Source: Candidatus Micrarchaeia archaeon (GTDB lineage Archaea > Micrarchaeota > Micrarchaeia > Norongarragalinales > Norongarragalinaceae). From it: DNA of 64,000 nucleotides. The stretch spans positions 13,793 to 77,792 of the forward strand of contig JBAZPG010000004.1 of assembly GCA_041648335.1 (NCBI GenBank), given 5' to 3'. This document shows positions 2,548 to 46,170 of the stretch, in pieces. Under the pieces are notes generated by a model. The model made no database searches and was not told the origin of the DNA. It saw nothing but the letters and a program-made list of their open reading frames with translations. The position numbers and the translations under genes are program-made. Every line of letters starts with the position of its first letter. Position 1 is the stretch's first letter.

Positions 2548-5500
2548 TCAAGGCACCCAGCCGCTGATTATTCCAGTCAACTCGCTTTGCGCGTAAGTCG
2601 ACGGGTCGCCCTGCGCCGCGTCGAAAACGCCGCTTGCGCCCGCACCCGCATTCGCGTTCACCAAACCGAACGCCTCCCACGGCGCGGCATTCGCGAAAAC
2701 ATCCTGTAACGCCGGCGGCACGGGCGCGCACGACGCACTCAAACCGAAACGCACAACCGTGTAAAGCCGGTTATTGAAAACAAATTCTTCCACGCCCCCT
2801 GCCTTTGCCTCGCAAATTGCAACGCAGTTCCCGGAGGGAAGCGGCGAACAAACGAAATTCGCGGTCTTGGGTTCGGGCACGAGCGCGGGCAAGCTCACGA
2901 GCATTCCACTCAATTCGGCGCACGGTGCCACCGCAAGCGAGCACGCCGCCCGGCTGCCCGTGACATCCGAGTAAAAGCTGGGCACCACCACGCTTTGCGT
3001 TTCTTGTGCCTGCGCGAGCGAAGCAAGCGTCGCCTCTTCAGTTACCCGCACCCCGTCGTCCTCGCCGTGCGCGAAACCGCACAAGCGCGTTCCGCCAGCA
3101 GTCATAATCGAAGCGGAGTAATCCCACGTTGAACCGTCCGCACTCGCTGCCTTCAACTCCACTACTGCGGGTCCGCCACACGCTTCAACCGTAAACCCTT
3201 CTTCTTCCAACGCAGTCAAGCCGCCCTCGGCGAGCTGGGCAATGCCTACGAACTCGAATTCACCAAAGCCAAGCGCCCCCGCCGGCGCCCCTGCGCCCCG
3301 TTTGAACGCGCCGGCGTTCGCCGTGCGCAACGCCTCAGCCTTGAACGCCGCCATCATTTCCTTGGCAGCCGAAGCGTCGCACCAACCGCGGCTGCAGCAC
3401 AGCCAGTCCCCGCACGATTCAACGCGGGAACCCAAATCCGTTTTTCCCGGGAACAACGAAACCTGTTGCGGGTAGTCCACGCTTGCCGAAAAACTTCCGC
3501 TCTCGAACGCGGTTGACTCAGTCAGCTCGAACGCCCTGACTGCCGGCGAATCGAACTCAACGCCGTTCACGATGCGCGAGCCGAACTGTTTCTCGTCCAA
3601 AACAAACGCGAGCTTCGCCGCGCCGTCGCCTGGCGTCAACCCGCGCGGCTCAACGAGCAACGCTTCTTCTTCAACCGCAGTCACGCTTATCGGTATTTCA
3701 AGGCGCGCGTCTTTGAGGCAGGACGCGCTCACCACCAGGCGCGCGCCCGCGTCTTCGGGCGCCGCGTTGCCGTCAACCGCAAGCGGGCACGAGGGGTTGC
3801 CTGCGTCCGCGGCTTTGAACCACACCGCCCCGTTTGCATAACCGTAACACGATTCCGTGCCCGCGCTGCTCTCGAAGCGGTAGGCAAGCCCGCACTCTTC
3901 AGCCGTCAAGTCCAACGCAACCGCGTCCGCCGGATAAATCGAGTTGACTTCCAATTCGATTTCCAAGACGCGCGACTTGAGCGCGCCCGATTCGAGCCAG
4001 AAGTCCTCGTGCGCGCCAGTAGAATTCCACGCCGTACCGTTGCCTCCGGTTGCCTCTTCCGGCTTGCTCACCTGAACCGTGAAATCCTCGGTCGCGGCAT
4101 AGCATCCTGCCTTTTCAGGCGCGCGCTCCGCGTTGCCGAGTGCTTCGTCAAGCGGGTCACGCGTCCATTCGCTTCCCTTGATTGAATAGCCGCGGTAACC
4201 GAACGACACGGTTCCCGCGCCGCCGGCGCGCACCTTGAACACGCGTTCGCCCGCGTGCGCCCGCGAACGCGAATCCACCCACTTGTAGCCCCCGTTCAAC
4301 GCCGCAACCGAATCCTGCAAGAGTGCCGCGCAATATTCCCCCGCGTCGTCCAATTCAGCCGAGCTGCGTTCCACCCAGTCGCCTTTCGGGTAGTTGGTAA
4401 TCCAGGCGTCCCCGTGCACGCTCAACGCAACGCCCGCCTCGTCCGCGCCTTCCGCGGGCACGAGGTTGAACACGAGTTCGTATTCGCGTCCTTCCTCGAA
4501 CGCGTCCACGAAACCCGAGGCGTCCCGCGCGCCCACGAACTCCACGCGTGCCGTGCCGTCCGCGCGCTCGAGCTCCACCGAACGCGCGGCGCGTTCGCCC
4601 GGTTCCAAGCCGTCCACGGAAAATTCAGTCGCGGCGTAGCCGTCCGCGTCCGCGCGCACTATTGTTTCTTCAAAAGCGTCCAACTCGAAGCCATCAGCAT
4701 CCACTGAAACCTTTTCGTTGTTTTGCGTGACCTCGAACAAGGCGCGGTCAATCGAATTATTCGCGGAGTCAACCGCGTCCAGAACAAGGAACGCCTTGCC
4801 CCACGCGAGCTTCAGGCTAATGTTCTTGTCCTCGTCGAGCGTTACGCTCGCGGACGCCCGCTTCCCGTTCGCGTAAGCGGATACTGAGTATTCGCCCGCG
4901 TCGAGGCGGAACTCCGCCCGGCCGTCAAGGGCAAAAGCGTCCGCCTTCGCCTTGCCGTCCGCCGAGCGCACCGAGAGGCTCGCATTGCCCGCGTCCACCG
5001 TGACCAACAGTTTCTTGGATGATGCAGTCGAGCGCGCCACGACTTCCACGGTGCCGCCCGGTTGGAATTCGCGGCTGGTTACGGGCGCGAAGCCCGTGCC
5101 GGTTGCAACAAAGTAAAGCGATTCGTTCGAGTACGACGAGTACACTGCCTCGCCGTTCGTTTCCGTTGATGCCAGCGGGTTCGCGGGCAGCGAGTAAACC
5201 GAAATCAAGCAGGGCACGGGCGCGCCTCGCGCGTCCACTGCGCGCAGCGTGGTGTTCACCGGCTCGGCGGACAAGGAGATTTCAAGGAAGTTCGCGCCTT
5301 CGGAGAGCACGCGCGGCTCAGCGGAGCCGTCGAGCACGCCGTCGCCGACGAATACCGCGTACGCCTCGGTGCCCGCGGGCAAACCCCGAATGATTGCGCT
5401 TCCCGCTTCCACGCGCGCGGAACCCAGGAACACGCCCGCGTTGAAGTCGCGCACGAACACTTCACCGTCAACAGGCGCGCCGCTTGCGCCGGTCACGGTG

Positions 5501-24797: not shown

Positions 24798-25220
24798 TCA
24801 ATTTAGCTGCTTAACCATCAAATCGGGCGCGCACTCTTCTTTCCTCTTGCAGTGTAGGCAAACAAAAAGAGGTTGCGGGAACTCGTCTTCGCCAATCTTT
24901 CTGAAGCCCGCCGCTTCATAGAACCCCCGGGCGTGCCGGGTTATCAAGAAAATGCGTTGGGCGCCTAGTTTTTTTGCGGTTTCAATAACCTTATTCATCA
25001 GTTTTGTTCCAATGCCCTTGTTTTGATGCTTTTTGTCAACCGCAAGCAGGTCGAGCTTGTATTCATTGCCGGAACCGCGGAGAATTACGCTGCCCACGGG
25101 TTTTCCGTCCTCTATGGCCTCCCACGCTTTCAGACAGTTGTCAAAAGGGTGCACGTTCATGCCGAAGCTCTTTGCGAGCGACTCCACGAACGCAAAGTTT
25201 TTCGTTTCCCTTATTTCCAT
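24798..25220 (-). CDS. GNAT family N-acetyltransferase
   Basis: Acetyl-CoA-binding motif Q/RxxGxG/A (HQNKGIGTKLM) with a GNAT fold-length core. Confidence 0.8.
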   Translation of the reverse strand: MEIRETKNFAFVESLAKSFGMNVHPFDNCLKAWEAIEDGKPVGSVILRGSGNEYKLDLLAVDKKHQNKGIGTKLMNKVIETAKKLGAQRIFLITRHARGFYEAAGFRKIGEDEFPQPLFVCLHCKRKEECAPDLMVKQLN

Positions 25221-25426
25221 GATTTAATGTGCCTGGAGCCGGCTATTAAACTCTGGGGAATCCTGCGGTTCAGGAAAGGGGCGCGCACTCGACTATCGCC
25301 TCGTCGCCCTGCGCCGAGATGCCCCGCACCTCGAACGGCGACGCAGCGAACGCGGAAAGCAAATCCGCGTAACACAACTTGCTGACGTTTATTCTCATTT
25401 TTCCAACACCTCTTTTTTTGGGGACC

Positions 25427-25511
25427 TGCCGGGGGCGGGATTCGAACCCGCGATTGACCTTAGCCAAACCGCTCGACAGGCAGTCCCCTTAACCTGCTCG
25501 GGCACCCCGGC
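25427..25511 (-). tRNA. tRNA, 85 nt, with a 16-nt extra arm but a GUC-containing anticodon loop; identity unresolved (possibly Asp-like with a non-canonical insertion)
   Basis: Minus-strand sense GCCGGGG-UG-..-ACUGC-CUGUCGA-GCGGU-UUGGCUAAGGUCAAUC-GCGGG-UUCGAAU-CCCGC-CCCCGGC-A. It has a perfect 7-bp acceptor and T arm. The only pairable anticodon stem gives loop CUGUCGA, and no CCA is encoded. Confidence 0.55.
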
Positions 25512-25540
25512 GCAAAACCTTTTTATATTCCCTCCGGCAC

Positions 25541-25578
25541 TCCTTCCCTTGACAGGCAGTTCCCTTCCGCCCGTTCGG
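25541..25578 (-). repeat. degenerate (~80% identity) partial copy of the 5' half of the adjacent tRNA, located 5' of it
   Basis: GGTGCCCGAACGGGCGGAAGGGAACTGCCTGTCAAGGG aligns with tRNA positions 6-43, GGTGCCCGAGCAGGTTAAGGGGACTGCCTGTCGAGCGG. Confidence 0.5.
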
Positions 25579-25694
25579 GCACCTTTTTCTTTTTTTGTTA
25601 CGGTTTAAAACCAAGGCTCGACCCGTGGCTGCCACTGCTTCCACTCCCCGTTCGGGCAAGAACGCTTTTAACCCCAAAAAGCGTATCCCTTGTC

Positions 25695-26240
25695 ATGGAT
25701 GCGGACGAGGAAGCCGTGCGCTCGCTCAAGCGCTTCTTTTCGGAGCGCGACTCGCGTTCCCTGGAGAGCCAGGCGGCTAGTTTGGCGCGCGAGGCGCTCG
25801 TTCGCACGGATTCCGTGCTCGTGGACTTGTCTATTCTCGCTTTCGTGTTATCCAAGCTCTCGAACAAGCAGCACATCATTGAGTCCCGTTCCTGGGGTCC
25901 CGCATCCGGACGCATCTTGAGCCACCTGGAGGAAGCCGCACTCCAGTTCAAGGGCGGGGCGCGCGTGAAGGCAGGGGAAAGCGTGCGCGCGGCGCTAAAC
26001 GACGTGGACGCCCTCGGATTGGCTGAGGGACGTTTTGTTTCGAGCATGGTGGAGAAGGGGCGCATCAAGGCGGCAGCCCAGATGTACGCGCACGGCGCCT
26101 CCCTGGGGGCAGTCGCCTCGTTTACAGGGGCTTCGAAGTCGGATTTGGCTGATTACGTGGGGAACACCAACATCCCGGACAAGTACTCCTCGATGCCGGT
26201 GCGCGAGCGGCTGGAAGCCGCACGGAAGGTTTTCTCATGA
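25695..26240 (+). CDS. hypothetical protein (181 aa), translationally coupled to the downstream PIN-like gene
   Basis: Stop overlaps the downstream ATG (ATGA at 26237-26240); no recognisable motif. Confidence 0.4.
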   Translation: MDADEEAVRSLKRFFSERDSRSLESQAASLAREALVRTDSVLVDLSILAFVLSKLSNKQHIIESRSWGPASGRILSHLEEAALQFKGGARVKAGESVRAALNDVDALGLAEGRFVSSMVEKGRIKAAAQMYAHGASLGAVASFTGASKSDLADYVGNTNIPDKYSSMPVRERLEAARKVFS

Positions 26241-26902
26241 ACATCGTGTGCGACAGCTCCACGCTAATCTCGCTGGGCTCCACCGGGGTGCTGGACTGCC
26301 TGGAGTTCCTCACCCAGAAGACCGGCGCGTCGTTCATCATTCCCCCCGCGGTCGAGCGCGAGATAATCGGGCACGCCCTCCGCATTGACAAGTACCGCTT
26401 CTCCGGACTCCGTCTAAAGAGCCTGGTGCGCCGCGGCGTGCTCAAGGTAGTCGCCCTGCCCCCGCTGACTCGCGAGGGGCACCGCATACTCGACGAGGCG
26501 AACAACGCGTTCAAGGAGCGCGGGCGCGCATTCCAAATCCTGCAGGAAGGCGAGGCGGAGTGCATCGCCCTGTTGTCGTTCGTGCCCGCGGCTGCGCTCG
26601 CGGTGGACGAGAAAACCACGCGCCTGTTGCTCGAGGACCCCGCGGGTTTGGCGCGCGTAATCCAAGCCGATGCCGGGGAGCGCGTGGAGGCGGACCAGGG
26701 CGCGCTTGCCGCGCTCGCAAAGCGCCGCGGCAATACGCCGATAATCCGTTCCACCGAGATTCTCGCGGTTGCCGTAGAAAAGGGCTTTTTCGATTCCTTC
26801 GGGCAAGACAAGGCCGAAGCGTTGAAGGCGGGAGTGAACGCGTTGCGGCGGGCGGGTTGCAGCATCAGCCACCGCGAGTTGGACGAGTACGAAAGCCTTT
26901 AA
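26237..26902 (+). CDS. PIN-like domain protein (221 aa)
   Basis: N-terminal MNIVCDSSTLISL (PIN Asp-1), then acidic positions AVEREI, GEAECIALL and AVDEKT in PIN-like spacing. It is longer than a typical VapC. Confidence 0.45.
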   Translation: MNIVCDSSTLISLGSTGVLDCLEFLTQKTGASFIIPPAVEREIIGHALRIDKYRFSGLRLKSLVRRGVLKVVALPPLTREGHRILDEANNAFKERGRAFQILQEGEAECIALLSFVPAAALAVDEKTTRLLLEDPAGLARVIQADAGERVEADQGALAALAKRRGNTPIIRSTEILAVAVEKGFFDSFGQDKAEALKAGVNALRRAGCSISHRELDEYESL

Positions 26903-26928: not shown

Positions 26929-27000
26929 AAGGGCTGGTAGATCAACGGTAGATCGCACGCTCCGCAAGCGTGAGGTTGCGGGTTCAAATCCCGTCCAGTC
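26929..27000 (+). tRNA. tRNA-Ala (anticodon CGC)
   Basis: Acceptor GGGCUGG/CCAGUCC with the G3:U70 alanine identity pair, D stem GAUC/GAUC, anticodon stem CACGC/GCGUG, loop UCCGCAA, T arm GCGGG-UUCAAAU-CCCGU, discriminator A. Position 33 is C rather than U, and no CCA is encoded. Confidence 0.8.
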
Positions 27001-27007
27001 CACTCGC

Positions 27008-39794: not shown

Positions 39795-40499
39795 TTAGAG
39801 GCGCGCCGCGCCTAACGCGCACAACGCTGCAACGAGCAGGGGCTGGTGCGCCAGGTAAATCGCGAGCGAGTGCCTGCCCGCCAGGCACAACGCCCCCGCG
39901 TAAAAAGGCTTCTCGAATAACGCGAAAGCGCGCCTGCCGCCCCGATAGAATATTTTTCCGGCGGCAACGCCGAACAGGAATACGCCGAACCACGGGAACA
40001 ACGGTTCGTAGTCAACCGAGGAAAAGCCCGCGGGCGCAACGCCCAGCCACAAGAACAGTTGGGTTTCGGGTTGGATTGTTGCCAAGGGAACGGCGAGCGC
40101 GATAATCACGCAACCCAAAACAACCAAGGCAACGGGAGGCAGGCGCAAGGCGAACGCGCCCGCGAGTATTATCGACGCGCCTATCAAGTGTAAAACCCCG
40201 AAGACAACGAACGCTTCGGGAATGAAGTAAAACGTTGTTGCGGTGACGAGCAAGCCGCACGCGAATATTTTCGCGCCGCGCGCCGCCAGGCGTTTGCCTT
40301 GCGTGGACGCGAGGTGCGTGCTCAAGCCGGCGAGGAAAACGAATGCGGCAACCGTGGCGAACGCCCACAACTGGTTCGCAGGCAACGCGGGGTCAAAGCT
40401 CGCGATGCCGAAATAAGCGAGGGCGTAGAGCCAGTTGAATGCGAGCATGGACGCCACCGCGGCGCCGCGCGCGAAGTCCACCTCCCAGAATCGGGGCAT
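39795..40499 (-). CDS. DUF1624-like acyltransferase-family membrane protein
   Basis: 234 aa, multi-TM, with an N-terminal RFWEVDFARG motif. Confidence 0.45.
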   Translation of the reverse strand: MPRFWEVDFARGAAVASMLAFNWLYALAYFGIASFDPALPANQLWAFATVAAFVFLAGLSTHLASTQGKRLAARGAKIFACGLLVTATTFYFIPEAFVVFGVLHLIGASIILAGAFALRLPPVALVVLGCVIIALAVPLATIQPETQLFLWLGVAPAGFSSVDYEPLFPWFGVFLFGVAAGKIFYRGGRRAFALFEKPFYAGALCLAGRHSLAIYLAHQPLLVAALCALGAARL

Positions 40500-40535
40500 T
40501 CACCAATTAAGAAAACGCAGGTTAAAATGATTGGC

Positions 40536-40552
40536 TGCGTTCAATTGATTTG
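40536..40552. repeat. left copy of an imperfect 17-bp direct repeat (TGCGTTCAATTGATTTG) bounding a 4.2-kb low-GC segment
   Basis: Matches 44770..44786 (TGCGTTCAGTTTATTTC) at 14 of 17 positions. GC content drops sharply between the two copies. Confidence 0.4.
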
Positions 40553-40712
40553 ACAAAATCACATCATCCTCCCGAGGTAGGGTGTGGTATATTTCAATAG
40601 GTTAGTTGTGGACTATTATTGAACGACGTTGCATAATTTTAATATTTACCTACGAATCTATTTGACCGAAAAACATATATTACTCTTTTATCATTAATAT
40701 TGATAGATTTGT

Positions 40713-41030
40713 ATGGTTATGGCTAAAGAAGATCCGAACGAAATACTTCAGGCTCTGCTGAGGATAGAGCATCGCCTCGAGGACATGGGGGCATTACTGC
40801 GCCTGGGTCAGCGCGGACAAATCGAGCAAATCAAACAAGAATTCTTGAGTAGTGGTGTACGTAAATCAGTTTATGAGTTATGCAACGGGAACTGCTCCGT
40901 CAACGAGATGGCTGCCAAGTTGCACAAAAAGGGACCCAACATAAGCCGGGCCCTTGGAGAGCTTGAGGCTGCTGGATTGATACGGCAAATTAGGGCTGGC
41001 AGGCACGTTAGCTACGAGCGCCTGATTTGA
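40713..41030 (+). CDS. winged-HTH (ArsR/MarR-like) DNA-binding protein
   Basis: SVNEMAAKLHKKGPNISRALGELEAAGLIRQIRAGRHVSY is a recognition helix plus wing; 105 aa, low GC. Confidence 0.55.
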   Translation: MVMAKEDPNEILQALLRIEHRLEDMGALLRLGQRGQIEQIKQEFLSSGVRKSVYELCNGNCSVNEMAAKLHKKGPNISRALGELEAAGLIRQIRAGRHVSYERLI

Positions 41031-41031
41031 G

Positions 41032-41259
41032 GTGGGGAATATGAGTGAAGAAATATTAGCCCGCATAGACCGGCGTTTAGAACAACTGGTTAAGATATCT
41101 GCGTTGAATGTCGGCAAGGATTCAACTTTGACTGATAGGATAGTATTGCTCTACAAGATTGATTTCGGACCGAAAGAAATTGCAGAAATTCTTGGAACAA
41201 ATCCTAACGTGGTTAATGTTCGATTATCCGAAGCGCGAAAACGAGGCGAGATAAAATGA
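41032..41259 (+). CDS. small HTH protein, sigma-70 region-4-like (paralog 1 of 3)
   Basis: 75 aa ending PKEIAEILGTNPNVVNVRLSEARKRG; overlaps the next gene by ATGA. Confidence 0.5.
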   Translation: MGNMSEEILARIDRRLEQLVKISALNVGKDSTLTDRIVLLYKIDFGPKEIAEILGTNPNVVNVRLSEARKRGEIK

Positions 41260-41474
41260 AAATCAAATCCGAATTGGATGTATTAAACGAGATTTCAAGG
41301 AAACTAGATGTCCTAATAATCACGCTAACTTGTCAAGGCAAGTCCGAAGACGAAGTAACTCAGATATTCATGAGATCTGGGCTCAGCTGTCCTGAACTTT
41401 CTACGATAACTGGTATAAGTGTTGCTGCAATCCAAAAACGTATTGAACGCGCACGAAAACGGGTGAAAAAATGA
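41256..41474 (+). CDS. small HTH protein, sigma-70 region-4-like (paralog 2 of 3)
   Basis: 72 aa ending PELSTITGISVAAIQKRIERARKRV; overlaps the next ATG by ATGA. Confidence 0.5.
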   Translation: MKIKSELDVLNEISRKLDVLIITLTCQGKSEDEVTQIFMRSGLSCPELSTITGISVAAIQKRIERARKRVKK

Positions 41475-41638
41475 GTGACGAAGATATTGCCAAGGAGCTA
41501 GCAGACATAAAGAAATTGTTTATACTCAACTTAATGTCCGCGGGCGTAAATTCAACAGATATCGCTAAGACCCTCGGAGTAACAAAGGGGCGATTAAGTC
41601 AAATAGTAAAGCGGCCATCCAAGAAATCAACGGATTGA
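41471..41638 (+). CDS. small HTH protein, sigma-70 region-4-like (paralog 3 of 3; 55 aa, below the ORF-track length cutoff)
   Basis: Hand-translated: MSDEDIAKELADIKKLFILNLMSAGVNSTDIAKTLGVTKGRLSQIVKRPSKKSTD. It has the same HTH pattern and is translationally coupled. Confidence 0.4.
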   Translation: MSDEDIAKELADIKKLFILNLMSAGVNSTDIAKTLGVTKGRLSQIVKRPSKKSTD

Positions 41639-41680
41639 TCCTAAAAATAATGGTACAACCATAAACTCGATACAACTGGT

Positions 41681-42472
41681 TTGATAAATATGAATTCTAG
41701 CGCTCCTTTGGATGCAGATACGCTAAAGAAAAACTGCGCACATTATGCTGGTCTTCATTCCAAAGCAATCGACGTTTTGAGAAAAGCCAACGGAAAAATC
41801 GATTATAAAAAAATTGCCGAAATTCTGAGTCTTTCTAAAACTAGAGTTAGTAGCCTATTGAAGTCAGCCGAGCGATTTGGGCTCGCAAGAAAAGAGGAAA
41901 AATTATACAAAAAGTTGCCAGGTATTCTTCAGCATATGCCTAAGCGGACCACTAAAAAAACGAGTTTCAGATCCGTATCGGAGGTTATGGTTGGGGCAAC
42001 TAAAAAAGCAAGCTCATTTAAGCGTAAACCGTACATCGGTTTTAGAACCAAAACGCAAGATGAGGGCAGGATGGCTAACGCATATATTTGGGTGTATATA
42101 ACAGAAAATCTCCTGCGAGACCTCATACGGAATGTATTTTCATCAGAAAAAGACTGGTGGAACAAGCAGGTTAATGGCGCAATTAAAAAAGAAGTACGTG
42201 ACGCTATAGCCAAATACCCTTATGACGGAGCTAAAAGAAAAGATGAACTGGAATATACTCACTTGGGGCAGCTTAAAGAGATAATAACCTCAAAAATGAA
42301 TTGGAATCTATTTTTATCTCATCTCAATGAAACTGATAAAAATAGTTTTAATGCTACGGTGGAAAAAGCTATCCCCTATAGAAATTCAATTGCTCATTGC
42401 ACTCGCCTGACCTCAGAGGATTTTAAATTTGTTGAACTGAGATTCAAGGACATTTTGAAAATGATAAAATAG
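41681..42472 (+). CDS. HTH-HEPN fusion protein (N-terminal wHTH; C-terminal HEPN-like domain with an R-x4-H motif)
   Basis: N-terminal ..KKIAEILSLSKTRVSSLLKSAERFGLARK; C-terminal ..KAIPYRNSIAHCTRLTSEDF containing RNSIAH (Rx4H), reminiscent of Abi_2/Swt1-type HEPN. Confidence 0.5.
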   Translation: MINMNSSAPLDADTLKKNCAHYAGLHSKAIDVLRKANGKIDYKKIAEILSLSKTRVSSLLKSAERFGLARKEEKLYKKLPGILQHMPKRTTKKTSFRSVSEVMVGATKKASSFKRKPYIGFRTKTQDEGRMANAYIWVYITENLLRDLIRNVFSSEKDWWNKQVNGAIKKEVRDAIAKYPYDGAKRKDELEYTHLGQLKEIITSKMNWNLFLSHLNETDKNSFNATVEKAIPYRNSIAHCTRLTSEDFKFVELRFKDILKMIK

Positions 42473-42670
42473 GCAAAGATATTCTTTCTTCGGAAACAAC
42501 AAATCTTTTTTGGTATCCGACAAACCTGCGCACCTCAAGCAGCTAACCTGATCGCTCAAAAGAGTGGCTACACCCTATCTTTCCCGCTTATTTCCGCACT
42601 GAAGCGTTTTGCTCCGATTTTCAGTGGCAACGACCCCTAAGCACCTTTTTAATGCGTCTTCGGGTTTACT

Positions 42671-43552
42671 ATGCGGGGGACTGGCGTGCTAAAGGAAGCT
42701 AAACCGTTTGTTAAATGGGCTGGAGGCAAGCGCCAGCTTTTGGACGAACTCACCCGGGGCCTTCCGTCCTTTGAAAATTATCACGAACCGTTTTTGGGTG
42801 GTGCCGCGTTCTTTTTCAGGTTGGAGGCAGAAGACAGGATAAACACGGCTTTCTTGAGCGACTCCAACGAGGAACTAATCAACGCTTACTCGATAATCAA
42901 AAGTGACGTTTTCGGGTTGATGGCGGAACTATCTTCCCCGATTTACGCGAACAATGAAGCCGCTTACTACAAAATGCGGGCCTCCAAGCCTTCTTCAAAG
43001 GTAGCGCGCGCGGCGCGTTTCATTTACCTGAACAAGACCGCGTTCAACGGGTTGTACCGCGTTAATTCGAAGGGCGGTTTCAACGTTCCCTTCGGGCGTT
43101 ACGATAACCCGAAGATACTCGACAGCGAAAATCTGTTGCTGGTTCACCGCGCCTTGCAAAAAGACGAGCTTTACTGCGGCGACTTCGCGGTTGTGTTGAA
43201 GAATGCGAAACGCGGTGATTTGGTTTACTTTGACCCGCCCTATCATCCAATATCCAAGACCGCGCACTTCACGAGCTACACTAAGGACAAGTTCTCTGAG
43301 GTGGATCAAACGAAGCTCATGAAAACCGTCAAGGCGCTCGATTCGCGTGGCTGTTTCGTGTTATTGAGCAACTCGTACTCCGACTTTACCGCCGAACTTT
43401 ACGCGGAGTTCGAGCCGGAAGTGATTTTTGCAAGCAGGATGATAAACTGCAAGGGAGACCGTCGAGGCAAAGTGCAGGAGTTACTTGTCCGGAATTGGGA
43501 GCCCAAGGTAGCCCAGAGGAAGCTCGTTGAAGAAATAGTCGCAATCAACTGA
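42671..43552 (+). CDS. DNA adenine methyltransferase, Dam/D12 class (N6-adenine MTase)
   Basis: N-terminal KPFVKWAGGKRQLL (AdoMet-binding motif I region), catalytic DPPY, and FNGLYRVN. Confidence 0.9.
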   Translation: MRGTGVLKEAKPFVKWAGGKRQLLDELTRGLPSFENYHEPFLGGAAFFFRLEAEDRINTAFLSDSNEELINAYSIIKSDVFGLMAELSSPIYANNEAAYYKMRASKPSSKVARAARFIYLNKTAFNGLYRVNSKGGFNVPFGRYDNPKILDSENLLLVHRALQKDELYCGDFAVVLKNAKRGDLVYFDPPYHPISKTAHFTSYTKDKFSEVDQTKLMKTVKALDSRGCFVLLSNSYSDFTAELYAEFEPEVIFASRMINCKGDRRGKVQELLVRNWEPKVAQRKLVEEIVAIN

Positions 43553-44008
43553 TTTGATGTACGCTAAAACATCCGCGTATTCCTTCTTTTTGAACCAGTC
43601 GTTTAAGACGTAAACATACTTGACTTTCAATTTCGGTTCGACGAGCTTCTTGTACTGCTTTAACTTGAAGTCGCAGGTCTGGAGCTTCTCGTCCACCGAA
43701 CCCGCGACCGTCTGGAACTTGGTTTCAACTATGAAAAGCGTCTCGTTCACCAGAACGAGCACGGCGTCGTCCGGCAGGAGCTTCTTGGAAATCAGTTTTC
43801 CAACATTTACGCCCATCGGCGCCAACAAGCCCGAATAAAGCCTGTTTTTCTTGTAAAGGCGCGCCACATCCTTGCCCTTGAAGGTTACGGTGTCGTCGCT
43901 GACCGCGTAACCCTTGATTTTCGAGATGACCGTAGCAAAGTCGGTTCTCTTCTCGAAGTGGAGCCCGTGAAGCGTAGTTTTGCTACCGCCCTTTCCTCCG
44001 CGAATCAT
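43481..44008 (-). CDS. putative PD-(D/E)xK nuclease; candidate restriction endonuclease partnered with the Dam-like MTase
   Basis: A PDD..(x18)..IVETK arrangement is compatible with a PD-(D/E)xK core. It lies convergent to the MTase and overlaps its 3' end by ~70 nt. The start is set at the internal Met (MIRGGKGG) because the upstream part of the ORF looks non-coding. Confidence 0.3.
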   Translation of the reverse strand: MIRGGKGGSKTTLHGLHFEKRTDFATVISKIKGYAVSDDTVTFKGKDVARLYKKNRLYSGLLAPMGVNVGKLISKKLLPDDAVLVLVNETLFIVETKFQTVAGSVDEKLQTCDFKLKQYKKLVEPKLKVKYVYVLNDWFKKKEYADVLAYIKSVDCDYFFNELPLGYLGLPIPDK

Positions 44009-44146
44009 AATACTAACAATATTGCCGGGTATTTTAGGTTTTAGCGGCTTCAGGTTTTGCTCTTTAAACCCCGTTTTGGGCGAGTTAAAGGAGAATAGCG
44101 CCGGATTTAGGAGTAGTTTTAAATCCGTCTTGGTTTTAGTTGTTTT

Positions 44147-44704
44147 ATGCCCGCGCCAAATAAGAAGTACGACTACTGCGATCCCATCCAGTTGAATTTG
44201 AAGAACAAAACGCGAGAAGAATTTAGACGGAGTATAGTAACCTGCTTTCTTTTGGAAAACAAGGGGTATTGGGACGATGAAGTCCAGCATGTTATGCATT
44301 ACACTTATTTTGTAGAAACAATAGCCGATGGTTCAAGAATTTACTTAAAGCGTCCCGCGCGTTTAAACAAGGGAATGGATTTTCAAGTAAATGCAGAAAA
44401 TTTTCTTAAATATGAAAACGGTAATAACAAACCACCCAGCCACAAGGACATAATAAAGGACCTAAAAAATAAAAAAAAAGAAGCTCCTAAAAAATTTGCG
44501 CAATTGATGAAGTTAATTGCGCGGGTCTATAATTGCGAAGAGCCAGATGAAGTTCTGTCCGGCAGTAATCTAAAATTTAATTCGGGTGCAACCATAGAAT
44601 TGTTGTTGAAATTATTGAAATGGTTGTTTATCGAACAGGATATGACTTACTGGAGTTATGATGGCCGCGAAATGCTTAAACGAGGAATAGACGAACTGGC
44701 GTGA
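44147..44704 (+). CDS. hypothetical basic protein (185 aa), low GC
   Basis: Coding-like Lys/Glu/Asn-rich composition in the AT-rich island; no motif. Confidence 0.35.
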   Translation: MPAPNKKYDYCDPIQLNLKNKTREEFRRSIVTCFLLENKGYWDDEVQHVMHYTYFVETIADGSRIYLKRPARLNKGMDFQVNAENFLKYENGNNKPPSHKDIIKDLKNKKKEAPKKFAQLMKLIARVYNCEEPDEVLSGSNLKFNSGATIELLLKLLKWLFIEQDMTYWSYDGREMLKRGIDELA

Positions 44705-44769
44705 ACGCGATTTTCATATATTTTATGCGCAGATCTGACCGTGAGCGGAGAATTCATTTAGCGCAAAGT

Positions 44770-44786
44770 TGCGTTCAGTTTATTTC
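44770..44786. repeat. right copy of the imperfect 17-bp direct repeat (TGCGTTCAGTTTATTTC)
   Basis: See 40536..40552. Confidence 0.4.
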
Positions 44787-45003
44787 GGCGAGCTTGCGCT
44801 TGACTTCCTCGTAATCCTCGTGGAGCCGGCGGTCTCTTTTCAGGGGGTCCATGCGGACCTTGGCTTCGAGTTCGATGAGTTTCGCCTTCAAACCCGACTT
44901 CCTGCGTTCCAAATCCTTTTTGCTCAAACCCATAAACGAATCGCCTCTCTACTAACTTGACGAGGAAGCGGAAGGTTTTAAGCGCGCCGCTTGGACGCCT
45001 AAG

Positions 45004-46170
45004 TTAAAACGGGATGTCGTCTTCGCTAGGTTTTCCTTTATTTTTCCTTGCAACCAATTGCCTGAAAATCCGCGAGGCGGCGCCTTGTTTGTATTTTTCG
45101 CGTTTTTCTTTCGCTTTTTTTCGCGCGTCCTCCAGCGTCGGTTTCTCGAGCGGAACTACAGAAGCATGTAAATTTTCGTAGTCTTTCAACTGTCCGTCAT
45201 AGTCTTTCAACAAATGGCGTTCGTAAGCTTCTTCGATTCTTTTGATTGTTTCTTTGGGCAGTTGCTGGAAGTGCGGGGTTATCTCGTGCGCGTCATCGAA
45301 TATTACCTGGCGCAATTCTGCGGCCAAGTGGTTTTCTTCGGTTGAACCGCCGGTCGAGTAATCCCAGCCAATTTCGCCCGGACGCCGGTTAGGTGCATTT
45401 CCCTTCTTGCCTTCTTCCTTCAAGTATGTGCCCGCAAGTGCTTTGGTTACGCGCGCGGTTCTCTCGCTTGGTTCCATTTTTTTCAACCAACCGGAAAGTA
45501 CGCAAACGCCGTTCTGCCGAGCGATGCGCGAGCGTTTGTCATTCAACAAGTTCAAGGCGTATTCCACGCCTTCGGGCGCACCCAAACGTACTAATGTCCT
45601 GACGGCATCGCTGCGGGTATTTTTGTTAGGGTCTTCGAGAAAGGGCAGCAGATGGCGTACGAGGTGCGGGTCACCCGAGAAGGCAATGGATTGGATTAAC
45701 TTGCTTCTCACGAAACTGCTTTTTTGGTCCGGCGCATGTAATGCTTGACAGGCGCCGAACGCGATTTCCGGGTAGTGCATAAATGCAGCTAATTTTTCGG
45801 CGGCGATGGCGCGCACCCAGTGGCTTCGGTCCCCGGTTGCTACCTTCAAGAGTTCTTCGCCCGCCGTCTGGCTCTTACGTCCACTCAATTTTTCCAGGTT
45901 GGCCAGCGCGCGCACTGCGGTTCCGCGGACTTCAAAGCGAGGGTCCCCGCGGATTAATTGGATTAACTTTCCATGGGCTTCCGGGGCGTCGATTGAGCCG
46001 AGAGCTGCCGCGAGTTTTACCCGTTTTTCCACGCCCGCGTTTTCAAACGAGGAGACGAGTTTAGCAAGGATTCCCGCTGGAATTTCATTCGAGATTATTC
46101 TTTGGCGGGGGTATTCAAATCGCGAACTAACATTATCCACCTTACTCCTTTGTTGCATCCATTTCGGCAT
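45004..46170 (-). CDS. HEAT-repeat (PBS-lyase-type) protein
   Basis: Multiple DPxxxVRxxAxxALxxxG repeats (DPRFEVRGTAVRALANL, DRSHWVRAIAAEKLA, DPNKNTRSDAVRTLVRLG). Confidence 0.7.
   Translation of the reverse strand: MPKWMQQRSKVDNVSSRFEYPRQRIISNEIPAGILAKLVSSFENAGVEKRVKLAAALGSIDAPEAHGKLIQLIRGDPRFEVRGTAVRALANLEKLSGRKSQTAGEELLKVATGDRSHWVRAIAAEKLAAFMHYPEIAFGACQALHAPDQKSSFVRSKLIQSIAFSGDPHLVRHLLPFLEDPNKNTRSDAVRTLVRLGAPEGVEYALNLLNDKRSRIARQNGVCVLSGWLKKMEPSERTARVTKALAGTYLKEEGKKGNAPNRRPGEIGWDYSTGGSTEENHLAAELRQVIFDDAHEITPHFQQLPKETIKRIEEAYERHLLKDYDGQLKDYENLHASVVPLEKPTLEDARKKAKEKREKYKQGAASRIFRQLVARKNKGKPSEDDIPF

Follow-up and report, generated by a model that had tools for sequence, protein, structure and literature searches.

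A gene for a transfer RNA (tRNA) whose body and anticodon belong to different amino acid families lies on the minus strand of the DNA described here, a 64-kb window of a metagenome-derived contig from a Candidatus Micrarchaeia archaeon, a member of the DPANN archaea. An archaeal origin had already been presumed in the initial annotation of this sequence. The gene is found upstream of a small conserved open reading frame (ORF); a partial copy of its own 5′ half precedes it, short repeats flank both, and a gene for a GNAT acetyltransferase follows about 200 bp downstream.

Structure of the tRNA gene

ARAGORN calls a single tRNA-Asp(gtc) at this locus, read from 25511 to 25427, and returns the same call when its intron mode is switched on and its threshold lowered. 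The Rfam family RF00005 matches end to end, from model position 1 to 71, with the extra arm accommodated as an insertion, and scores 54.8 bits where the gathering score is 29. Written 5′ to 3′, the RNA is GCCGGGG-UG-CCC-GAGCAGGUUAA-GGG-G-ACUGC-CUGUCGA-GCGGU-UUGGCUAAGGUCAAUC-GCGGG-UUCGAAU-CCCGC-CCCCGGC-A, and every pair in its stems is Watson-Crick or G.U. The acceptor stem, GCCGGGG/CCCCGGC, begins with G1-C72 and is followed by U8 and G9; the D stem, CCC/GGG, comprises 3 bp, with C10:G25 and G13.A22, and its loop carries G18G19; the anticodon stem, ACUGC/GCGGU, closes the loop CUGUCGA; and the T arm is GCGGG-UUCGAAU-CCCGC. The conserved tertiary positions are complete (U8, A14, G18G19, A21, U33, a purine at 37, here G37, G53-C61, U54U55C56 and A58), the Levitt pair is G15-C48, satisfying R15-Y48, and the discriminator base is A73, with no encoded CCA.

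A variable region that exceeds 10 nt and folds into a separate helix between positions 44 and 48, together with the 3-bp D stem and G13.A22, places the molecule in class II. The initial annotation had described an 85-nt tRNA of intact fold with a GUC loop and a 16-nt class-II arm, and had stated that no Leu or Ser anticodon fits a 7-nt loop; ARAGORN, Rfam and our reading of the sequence agree with the first statement, and alternative folds and ARAGORN, which yield GUC only, with the second. A CGA (Ser) reading was rejected, its stem carrying three mismatches, and 9-nt loops brought no improvement. The sequence of the region is identical in the ENA contig and in a Logan contig, two assemblies that do not necessarily derive from independent reads.

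Table 1. Features of the tRNA locus, in window coordinates
Feature	Position	Strand	Basis
Class-II tRNA gene, 85 nt, anticodon GUC, A73, CCA not encoded	25427-25511	minus	ARAGORN; Rfam, 54.8 bits; acceptor, variable and T arms present in minimum-free-energy fold
Anticodon GUC in 7-nt loop CUGUCGA (U33, G37, A38)	25475-25477	minus	ARAGORN (tRNA position 35) and sequence reading
Variable region UUGGCUAAGGUCAAUC, 16 nt: hairpin of 4-5 bp, loop UAAG, then unpaired A-U and C48	25452-25467	minus	ARAGORN drawing; fold
Partial copy of tRNA positions 6-40 (D arm, 5′ strand of anticodon stem, anticodon loop with GUC)	25548-25583	minus	Local alignment; repeat search (two blocks, D2 and D3)
Third copy of 12-mer TGCCCGAACGGG	25647-25658	minus	Repeat family D1; BLAST
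Left flanking direct repeat CAAAAAAAGAAAAAGGTG	25580-25597	minus	14 positions aligned with the right repeat, across a 4-nt gap
Right flanking direct repeat CAAAAAAAGAGGTG, including the GAGGTG ribosome-binding site of the small ORF	25407-25420	minus	Aligned with conserved leader of L003 and L004
Conserved 42-aa ORF with the tRNA in its 5′ leader (inferred)	25270-25398	minus	Gene called in L001-L007; 50% identity and 20 invariant columns compared with L003 and L004
TATA-like TTTTAAA, small-ORF promoter kept in relatives	25604-25610	minus	Conserved as TTTTTAAAG in L003 and L004
BRE-like GCAAAACC followed by TATA TTTTTATATT, heading away from the tRNA	25512-25529	plus	Predicted; layout as in BRE/TATA of tRNA-Ala and tRNA-Gln
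Oligo-T run T5CT7	25584-25596	plus	Predicted terminator; sequence reading
GNAT acetyltransferase, lineage-specific	24798-25220	minus	Pfam and NCBIfam

Identity of the tRNA body

Archaeal leucine identity resides in A73 together with a large variable region bearing A47c/G47d, and leucyl-tRNA synthetase (LeuRS) reads A73 and the arm rather than the anticodon; archaeal tyrosyl-tRNA synthetase (TyrRS) requires C1-G72; and aspartate identity in bacteria and eukaryotes comprises G73, G10 and the anticodon, the anticodon being the main determinant (PMC9976931). The window tRNA follows the archaeal Leu rule, with A73 and a variable loop, UAAG, whose positions 3-4 are AG; at the equivalent of U47h the tRNA has A-U, not U-U. 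Its G1-C72 is the reverse of the archaeal Tyr pair, and of the Asp set it possesses the anticodon alone. By these rules, therefore, the body is of Leu type for an archaeal cell while the anticodon is that of Asp. The resemblance to archaeal tRNA-Leu takes in the long arm with its 4-nt loop ending in AG, the unpaired nucleotides before C48, A73, G1-C72, the D loop GAGC...GG...AA, G13.A22, G37 and the absence of an intron; the difference lies in the anticodon, GUC in place of NAG or YAA. The 10:25 pair is G:C in examples of archaeal tRNA-Leu and C:G in the window tRNA.

The only full-length match in the databases is a tRNA-Tyr(GUA) of the actinobacterium Miltoncostaea oceani (NZ_CP064357), at 75.6% identity in BLAST and 66 of 85 positions (78%) in a global alignment. 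The two share UGCCCGAGC, the GGC variable stem, G34, U35, A73 and G1-C72. Like bacterial tRNA-Tyr the window tRNA is of class II, but it does not read GUA, having C36 for A and G37 for A, and the TyrRS of its archaeal host needs C1-G72. A phage tRNA-Ser is 75% identical, and the tRNA-Leu of P. horikoshii, in what is presumably its correct sequence, is 73% identical; a tRNA-Leu(UAA) on a giant-virus contig agrees in the D-arm 20-mer at 19 of 20 bases, in a search whose pattern left one position free. BLAST against phages returned T-arm pieces only, and against E. coli nothing. The comparison panel, which included the Leu and Ser tRNAs of halovirus HGTV-1, was too divergent for a decision, and its identity margins were small. 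Because the Tyr, Ser and Leu matches are so close, and the searchable collections overwhelmingly bacterial, the isotype is not assignable by similarity.

How does the gene compare with genuine archaeal tRNA-Asp? Scanning 185,579 species-representative genomes with the pattern CTGTCGA, 21-29 nt, GGGTTCRAATCCC gave 105 loci, the archaeal ones being intron-bearing class-I tRNA-Asp genes and the bacterial ones tRNA-Leu(CAA) genes or chance matches. The archaeal tRNA-Asp genes recovered have an intron at 37/38, a class-I body with G10, a GUGUAG or GUAUAG D arm, a variable loop of 4-5 nt, and G73. Their anticodon loop after splicing is CUGUCGA, the same 7-nt loop with GUC as in the window tRNA. There the likeness ends, since the window tRNA has a 16-nt arm in place of the short variable loop of a class-I body, C10 for G10, neither the GUGUAG nor the GUAUAG D arm, A73 for G73, and no 37/38 intron.

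Run without its intron mode, ARAGORN miscalls several intron-bearing archaeal tRNA-Asp genes as long tRNAs, and the possibility of an intron was therefore examined carefully. The gene holds neither a bulge-helix-bulge motif nor a relaxed variant of one; the 16-nt hairpin is unbulged and stands after a complete anticodon stem. The window tRNA is free of introns. A tRNA-Asp with an intron or insertion in its variable region, one of the possibilities raised in the initial annotation, is not supported, in view of this unbulged hairpin of 4-5 bp and of the class-II D arm and A73, and the non-canonical intron search that it recommended, carried out in the intron mode of ARAGORN, produced the same intron-less call.

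Not one of the 105 loci of the genome scan is a class-II GUC tRNA. A broader class-II plus GUC pattern (CCGAG, 4-8 nt, AAGG, 7 nt, YTGTCR, 20-30 nt, GGTTCRAATCC) had no match in IMG/VR, and in JGI metagenome contigs its only matches were bacterial, a Tyr-like tRNA whose loop has 8 nt and a degenerate Ser-like fragment; this pattern and that of the genome scan both match the window tRNA. The matches of a loose scan of IMG/VR were rejected as false positives, being tRNA-Ser(GCU) genes with CTGTCGA inside the variable arm, and the gap was therefore tightened in the genome scan. Within the limits of these patterns the window tRNA is apparently a singleton. The bacterial tRNA-Tyr-like gene (L125, 852-938), which lies on a metagenome contig, has the 8-nt anticodon loop CUGUCAAA and is called as SeC(tca) by ARAGORN; it may be a frameshift- or suppressor-type tRNA.

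Partial copy and short repeats

The partial copy agrees with tRNA positions 6-40 at 29 of 36 positions (81%), with one gap, and lies 37-72 nt upstream of the 5′ end of the tRNA, leaving a spacer of 36 nt. Its local alignment score is 35, compared with 13.5 +/- 2.1 in shuffled sequences, and none of 2000 shuffles reached 35. The upstream duplicate noticed in the initial annotation is thus real, but it ends at 25583 rather than 25580, with the span and distance given here. In itself the copy is no tRNA, ARAGORN making no call there even at an 80% threshold, and the spacer shows no similarity to the 3′ half of the tRNA (p = 0.42). BLAST finds no further match to the tRNA in the window beyond this locus.

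The 12-mer TGCCCGAACGGG occurs in three places. Its third copy is an exact match to 25570-25581, within the partial copy, and the version in the tRNA itself, at 25493-25504, agrees at 10 of 12 positions; each copy lies 77 nt from the next. The third 77-nt unit has no likeness to the other two outside the 12-mer, and full tandem repetition of 77-nt units was rejected, nothing significant appearing outside the 36-nt and 12-nt pieces. The arms of the 12-mer, GCCCG/CGGGC, are half-palindromic. The triplet may mark where a protein binds in the divergent promoter region, or be the trace of a serial duplication. On both sides of the copy-plus-tRNA unit there is a direct repeat of the form CAAAAAAAG(AAAA)AGGTG.

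Promoters and the small-ORF leader

The copy-plus-tRNA unit stands between the conserved TATA of the small ORF and its ribosome-binding site, and we therefore infer that it forms part of the leader of that mRNA. To judge from its position, TTTTAAA would be the sole upstream element from which a single transcript could take in copy, tRNA and ORF. The other two tRNA genes in the window, Ala-CGC and Gln-CUG, are ordinary, and in them the B recognition element (BRE) and TATA end 26-27 nt before +1, at the distance expected of an independent archaeal tRNA promoter. There is no TATA 26-27 nt before the +1 of the GUC tRNA; the nearest A/T box, AATATAAAAA, stops 8 nt short of +1, and its BRE-like flank is on the plus-strand side.

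The plus-strand BRE/TATA and oligo-T run of Table 1 are predicted to delimit an RNA of about 35-45 nt, antisense to the 5′-half copy and complementary to tRNA positions 6-40. The duplex predicted for this antisense RNA and the tRNA has an energy of -61.7 kcal/mol, compared with -32 +/- 3.9 in shuffles, the complementarity arising by construction because the antisense covers a copy of a tRNA segment. Neither the leader-plus-tRNA transcript nor the putative antisense RNA folds better than shuffled sequences.

The product of the small ORF, 40-42 aa long, follows the pattern MRIxVSKLCY...FA..PF.V.GI...I.EC and has no match in Pfam or NCBIfam; the ORF adjoins the SMC gene in the window and in the related contigs L003 and L004. 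All three also share the motif GGAAGCAsTGGmAGCCACGrGT, with two GGAAGC-like direct repeats (window 25621-25646, minus strand; L003, about 4855-4880; L004, about 4725-4750), in the interval that separates the promoter of the small ORF from the divergent promoter of a 181-aa gene.

Synteny and lineage-specific genes

The nearest relatives compared were L003 and L004-L007, at 58-63% protein identity, with L134 (SMC 46% identical) as outgroup; searches with the 181-aa protein, GNAT and SMC found no relative closer than 61-63% identity. The gene order in L003 and L004-L007 is SMC, the 40-42-aa small ORF, TATA, a divergent pair of genes for the 181-aa and PIN-like proteins, and tRNA-Ala(CGC). The GUC tRNA is absent from the syntenic site in these relatives and in L134; the neighbouring tRNA-Ala(CGC) is present in every one of them. 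L134 preserves the wider synteny, and the locus itself is rearranged there. The GNAT gene is likewise absent from the locus in L003, L004-L007 and L134. The roughly 74 kb read include no second tRNA-Asp, and the 10 kb to the left of the window contains no tRNA.

The GNAT gene has a GC content of 49% (60% at third codon positions), compared with 61-62% (78-84%) for its neighbours, and its only close homologue, with 78% amino acid identity, is found amid unrelated flanks on a contig of 43% GC (L133); this composition and distribution suggest recent horizontal acquisition. An exact 12-nt direct repeat, GGGCGCGCACTC (D4), brackets the gene, with one copy at the GNAT 3′ end (24825-24836) and the other at the 3′ end of the small ORF (25279-25290). 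Short direct repeats thus flank both of the lineage-specific inserts, the tRNA unit and GNAT, and both look like products of short-homology, illegitimate recombination. The products of the small ORF and of GNAT both end in ...ECAP.... On L133 the homologous GNAT is itself bracketed by an exact 12-nt repeat, CTCCCGAGGCTT (in the 164-189 region and at 701-712), the first copy of which lies directly 3′ of a T-arm-like hairpin, GGAGGTTCAAATCCCTCC; neither ARAGORN nor Rfam finds a tRNA there, and the hairpin and repeat could be an attachment (att) site at a tRNA end or a coincidence.

Other features of the neighbourhood can be noted briefly. The 181-aa protein, of no recognised family, and the 221-aa DUF3368 (PIN-like) protein are encoded at 25695-26902 on the plus strand by genes that overlap by 4 nt, and tRNA-Ala (26931-27003) comes next. 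The same tRNA-Ala(CGC) follows the pair in L003, L004 and L134; L008 and L009 retain the pair with no tRNA there according to ARAGORN. In its arrangement the pair looks like a toxin-antitoxin pair. Inteins split SMC in L003 and in several other Micrarchaeota, and RtcB in L134 and on the contig from which the window comes (L003, 1-4547; L128, 1-61; L134, 17123-19927). A low-GC island at about 40000-46000 of the window, of 46-47% compared with about 61%, encodes a D12 methyltransferase of the Dam type, a Swt1-like HEPN protein and a PD-(D/E)XK nuclease-like protein, and is probably a defence island that was acquired. Neither the window as a whole nor this island encodes an integrase, and a link between the tRNA and the island was rejected, there being neither an integrase nor tRNA-derived repeats in it.

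Discussion

The locus contains an intact tRNA gene whose body, with archaeal Leu features and also the architecture of bacterial tRNA-Tyr, conflicts with its Asp anticodon loop. The bracket left by the initial annotation, a noncanonical tRNA or a pseudo-tRNA, still fits. The explanation that we favour, tentatively and at somewhat less than even confidence, is that the gene is an anticodon-shifted class-II paralogue, placed here by illegitimate recombination, promoterless and at most read through from the small-ORF promoter, and not the main tRNA-Asp of the cell. Such a 'remolded' or chimeric paralogue would be specific to this Micrarchaeia lineage. It most probably arrived or arose at the locus by illegitimate, microhomology-type recombination, a process that would likewise explain the short flanking repeats, the 12-mers with their 77-nt phase and the decayed copy of positions 6-40; about 200 bp away, the GNAT gene appears to have been inserted by a similar route. 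Transcription would then start at the small-ORF promoter and pass through the tRNA within the mRNA leader, from which RNase P and tRNase Z could excise it before addition of CCA. If the product were charged at all, the anticodon-blind LeuRS would be a likelier enzyme than aspartyl-tRNA synthetase (AspRS). The gene would be a tolerated and presumably non-essential by-product of evolution, expressed at a low level at most.

In the host, GAC encodes the Asp of the KYDG motif of DNA ligase and that of the Walker B motif of SMC, and in a 573-residue alignment of the ligase with that of Sulfolobus, Asp is aligned with Asp throughout. GAY is therefore decoded as Asp, as in the standard code, and any leucylated GUC tRNA would therefore mistranslate.

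Several observations weigh against an anticodon-shifted by-product. A flawless tRNA beside a copy that has diverged by about 20% suggests purifying selection, and hence function, if the two stem from a single duplication. The search for a canonical tRNA-Asp covered roughly 74 kb of the genome. The flanking repeat is of low complexity and marginal significance (p about 0.04 by shuffling). Gain of the tRNA in the window lineage appears more parsimonious than loss in its relatives but is not proven, the polarity being weak because L003 and L004 are sisters (85% identity) and the locus of the outgroup is rearranged. Sequence identity, at 78%, 75% and 73%, cannot separate bacterial Tyr, some Ser and archaeal Leu tRNAs, and the label 'Leu-type' as used here derives from identity rules, not from a paralogue of the same genome.

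What else could the gene be? One answer, which we think rather unlikely, is a bacterial-type tRNA-Tyr acquired horizontally, its anticodon changed from GUA to GUC, which would be orthogonal to the archaeal TyrRS with its demand for C1-G72 and hence effectively inert. The sole full-length match is indeed to an actinobacterial tRNA-Tyr, with a common GGGGUGCCCGAGC, a GGC-type variable stem, the ...AUC junction and A73; bacterial tRNA-Tyr typically has C10:G25; and the neighbouring GNAT attests to horizontal gene transfer at the locus. The databases that can be searched by similarity are almost wholly bacterial, however, biasing the best match, while G37 and A38 are in archaeal style where tRNA-Tyr has A37, the giant-virus tRNA-Leu matches 19 of 20 in the D-arm 20-mer, and the identity margins are small. 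Alternatively, the gene could be a working mistranslating or recoding tRNA, matured, leucylated by the anticodon-blind LeuRS and inserting Leu at some GAY codons, perhaps checked by the antisense RNA. A73, the long arm and the xxAG loop fit the archaeal Leu identity set, the structure is flawless beside a decayed copy, the gene would lie in a transcribed leader, and the plus-strand BRE/TATA and oligo-T exactly bracket the antisense of the copy, with its strong predicted duplex (-61.7 kcal/mol). Yet GAC stands at universally conserved Asp residues, where a change from Asp to Leu would be harmful, the gene has no conservation in the relatives or databases scanned, and the promoter and terminator of the antisense are consensus-level predictions, so that we regard this as unlikely. 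Its most elaborate form, in which a Leu-identity tRNA reading Asp codons would be a naturally maintained mistranslator, produced from the leader and held in check by a cis antisense of about 40 nt from the decayed copy, seems very much a long shot; equally speculative is the corollary that such a system would amount to a tRNA-based toxic-RNA/antisense pair or to regulated codon ambiguity in a DPANN archaeon.

Nor does an integration event account well for the locus. In that case the tRNA would be an attachment site for site-specific integration and the upstream copy a leftover second att site, in keeping with the duplication of a tRNA segment beside a tRNA gene, the uptake of foreign DNA (GNAT) at the locus, and the 12-nt repeat that flanks the GNAT of L133 after a T-arm-like hairpin. 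An att scar would take the form of a near-exact repeat of a tRNA end flanking an integrase element, its core normally an exact match to the 3′ part; the copy here is instead an internal 5′ segment of 81% identity, with only 36 nt, and no element, between it and the tRNA. There is no integrase, the third 12-mer recurs at the same 77-nt spacing, the tRNA is unmatched elsewhere in the window, and the 40-46 kb island holds restriction-modification and HEPN genes. Integration therefore strikes us as quite improbable, and of the recombination or integration scar proposed in the initial annotation we retain local recombination, marked by short direct repeats at both inserts, and see little in favour of integration, with no integrase or mobile element, an internal 5′ segment 36 nt away and a 77-nt-phased triplet. 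That the gene encodes a true tRNA-Asp with an acquired long variable arm, charged by AspRS through GUC and possibly the sole tRNA-Asp of a reduced genome, is a very doubtful proposition. In its favour, archaeal tRNA-Asp has the identical loop, CUGUCGA, after splicing, the anticodon is the chief Asp determinant in bacteria and eukaryotes, and the structure is intact, with no other tRNA-Asp in the roughly 74 kb; but G73 and G10, present in all the archaeal tRNA-Asp recovered, are missing, relatives that must also decode Asp lack the gene at this locus, and it has no promoter of its own. AspRS, moreover, is a class II synthetase that approaches the tRNA from the side of the variable loop, where a long arm would be expected to clash. 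Least credible of all, and scarcely tenable, is a class-I tRNA-Asp with a non-canonical intron in its variable region, cut by a broad-specificity Micrarchaeota splicing endonuclease. Micrarchaeota are reported to have tRNA introns at odd positions, and ARAGORN without its intron mode does miscall intron-bearing tRNA-Asp as long tRNAs; here, however, the hairpin is perfect and unbulged, with no bulge-helix-bulge, the intron mode returns the same call, removal of the hairpin would leave a variable loop of 2 nt, and the class-II character of the D arm (C10-C12, G13.A22, GAGC) and of A73 would survive splicing.

If the anticodon-shifted paralogue that we favour is accepted, the nearest parallels are to be found outside the archaea. 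In alloacceptor tRNA remolding, or anticodon shift, duplication and anticodon change give a tRNA with the body of one acceptor family and the anticodon of another (PMC4783518, PMC3923123), and the window tRNA resembles these in drawing its body and anticodon from different families; the documented cases, however, are mitochondrial or eukaryotic nuclear and belong mostly to families whose identity is dominated by the anticodon (PMC4783518, PMC3923123). We found no description in the literature of an archaeal tRNA in which a class-II body has shifted to Asp and the identity sets conflict. The allo-tRNAs, Ser and Leu variants with foreign anticodons (PMC5389517), share the combination of long-arm Ser/Leu-type identity with a non-cognate anticodon, but they have an 8/4 or 9/3 acceptor/T architecture and form bacterial families (PMC5389517), whereas the window tRNA stands alone and folds as a standard 7/5 cloverleaf. 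What sets it apart from the known cases is that it is archaeal, a standard 7/5 cloverleaf, and a class-II body with a class-I-family anticodon in conflict with the identity of that body.

The significance of the gene depends on its fate in the cell. Codon reassignment is thought to start when tRNAs of the anticodon-blind synthetases, those for Leu, Ser and Ala, gain a foreign anticodon. To our knowledge, natural and structurally intact tRNAs at this early stage are rare, and we found no published report of one in archaea. If the tRNA is inert, the matter becomes one of annotation, as the tRNA-Asp label given by anticodon-based callers could mask a missing or different true tRNA-Asp in this metagenome-assembled genome. 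If it is charged by AspRS, it would be the first class-II tRNA-Asp. In any event the locus illustrates how tRNA pieces may be scattered by short-homology recombination in DPANN genomes and, if the tRNA is matured and leucylated, it would represent a living intermediate of codon reassignment in a genome-reduced symbiont.

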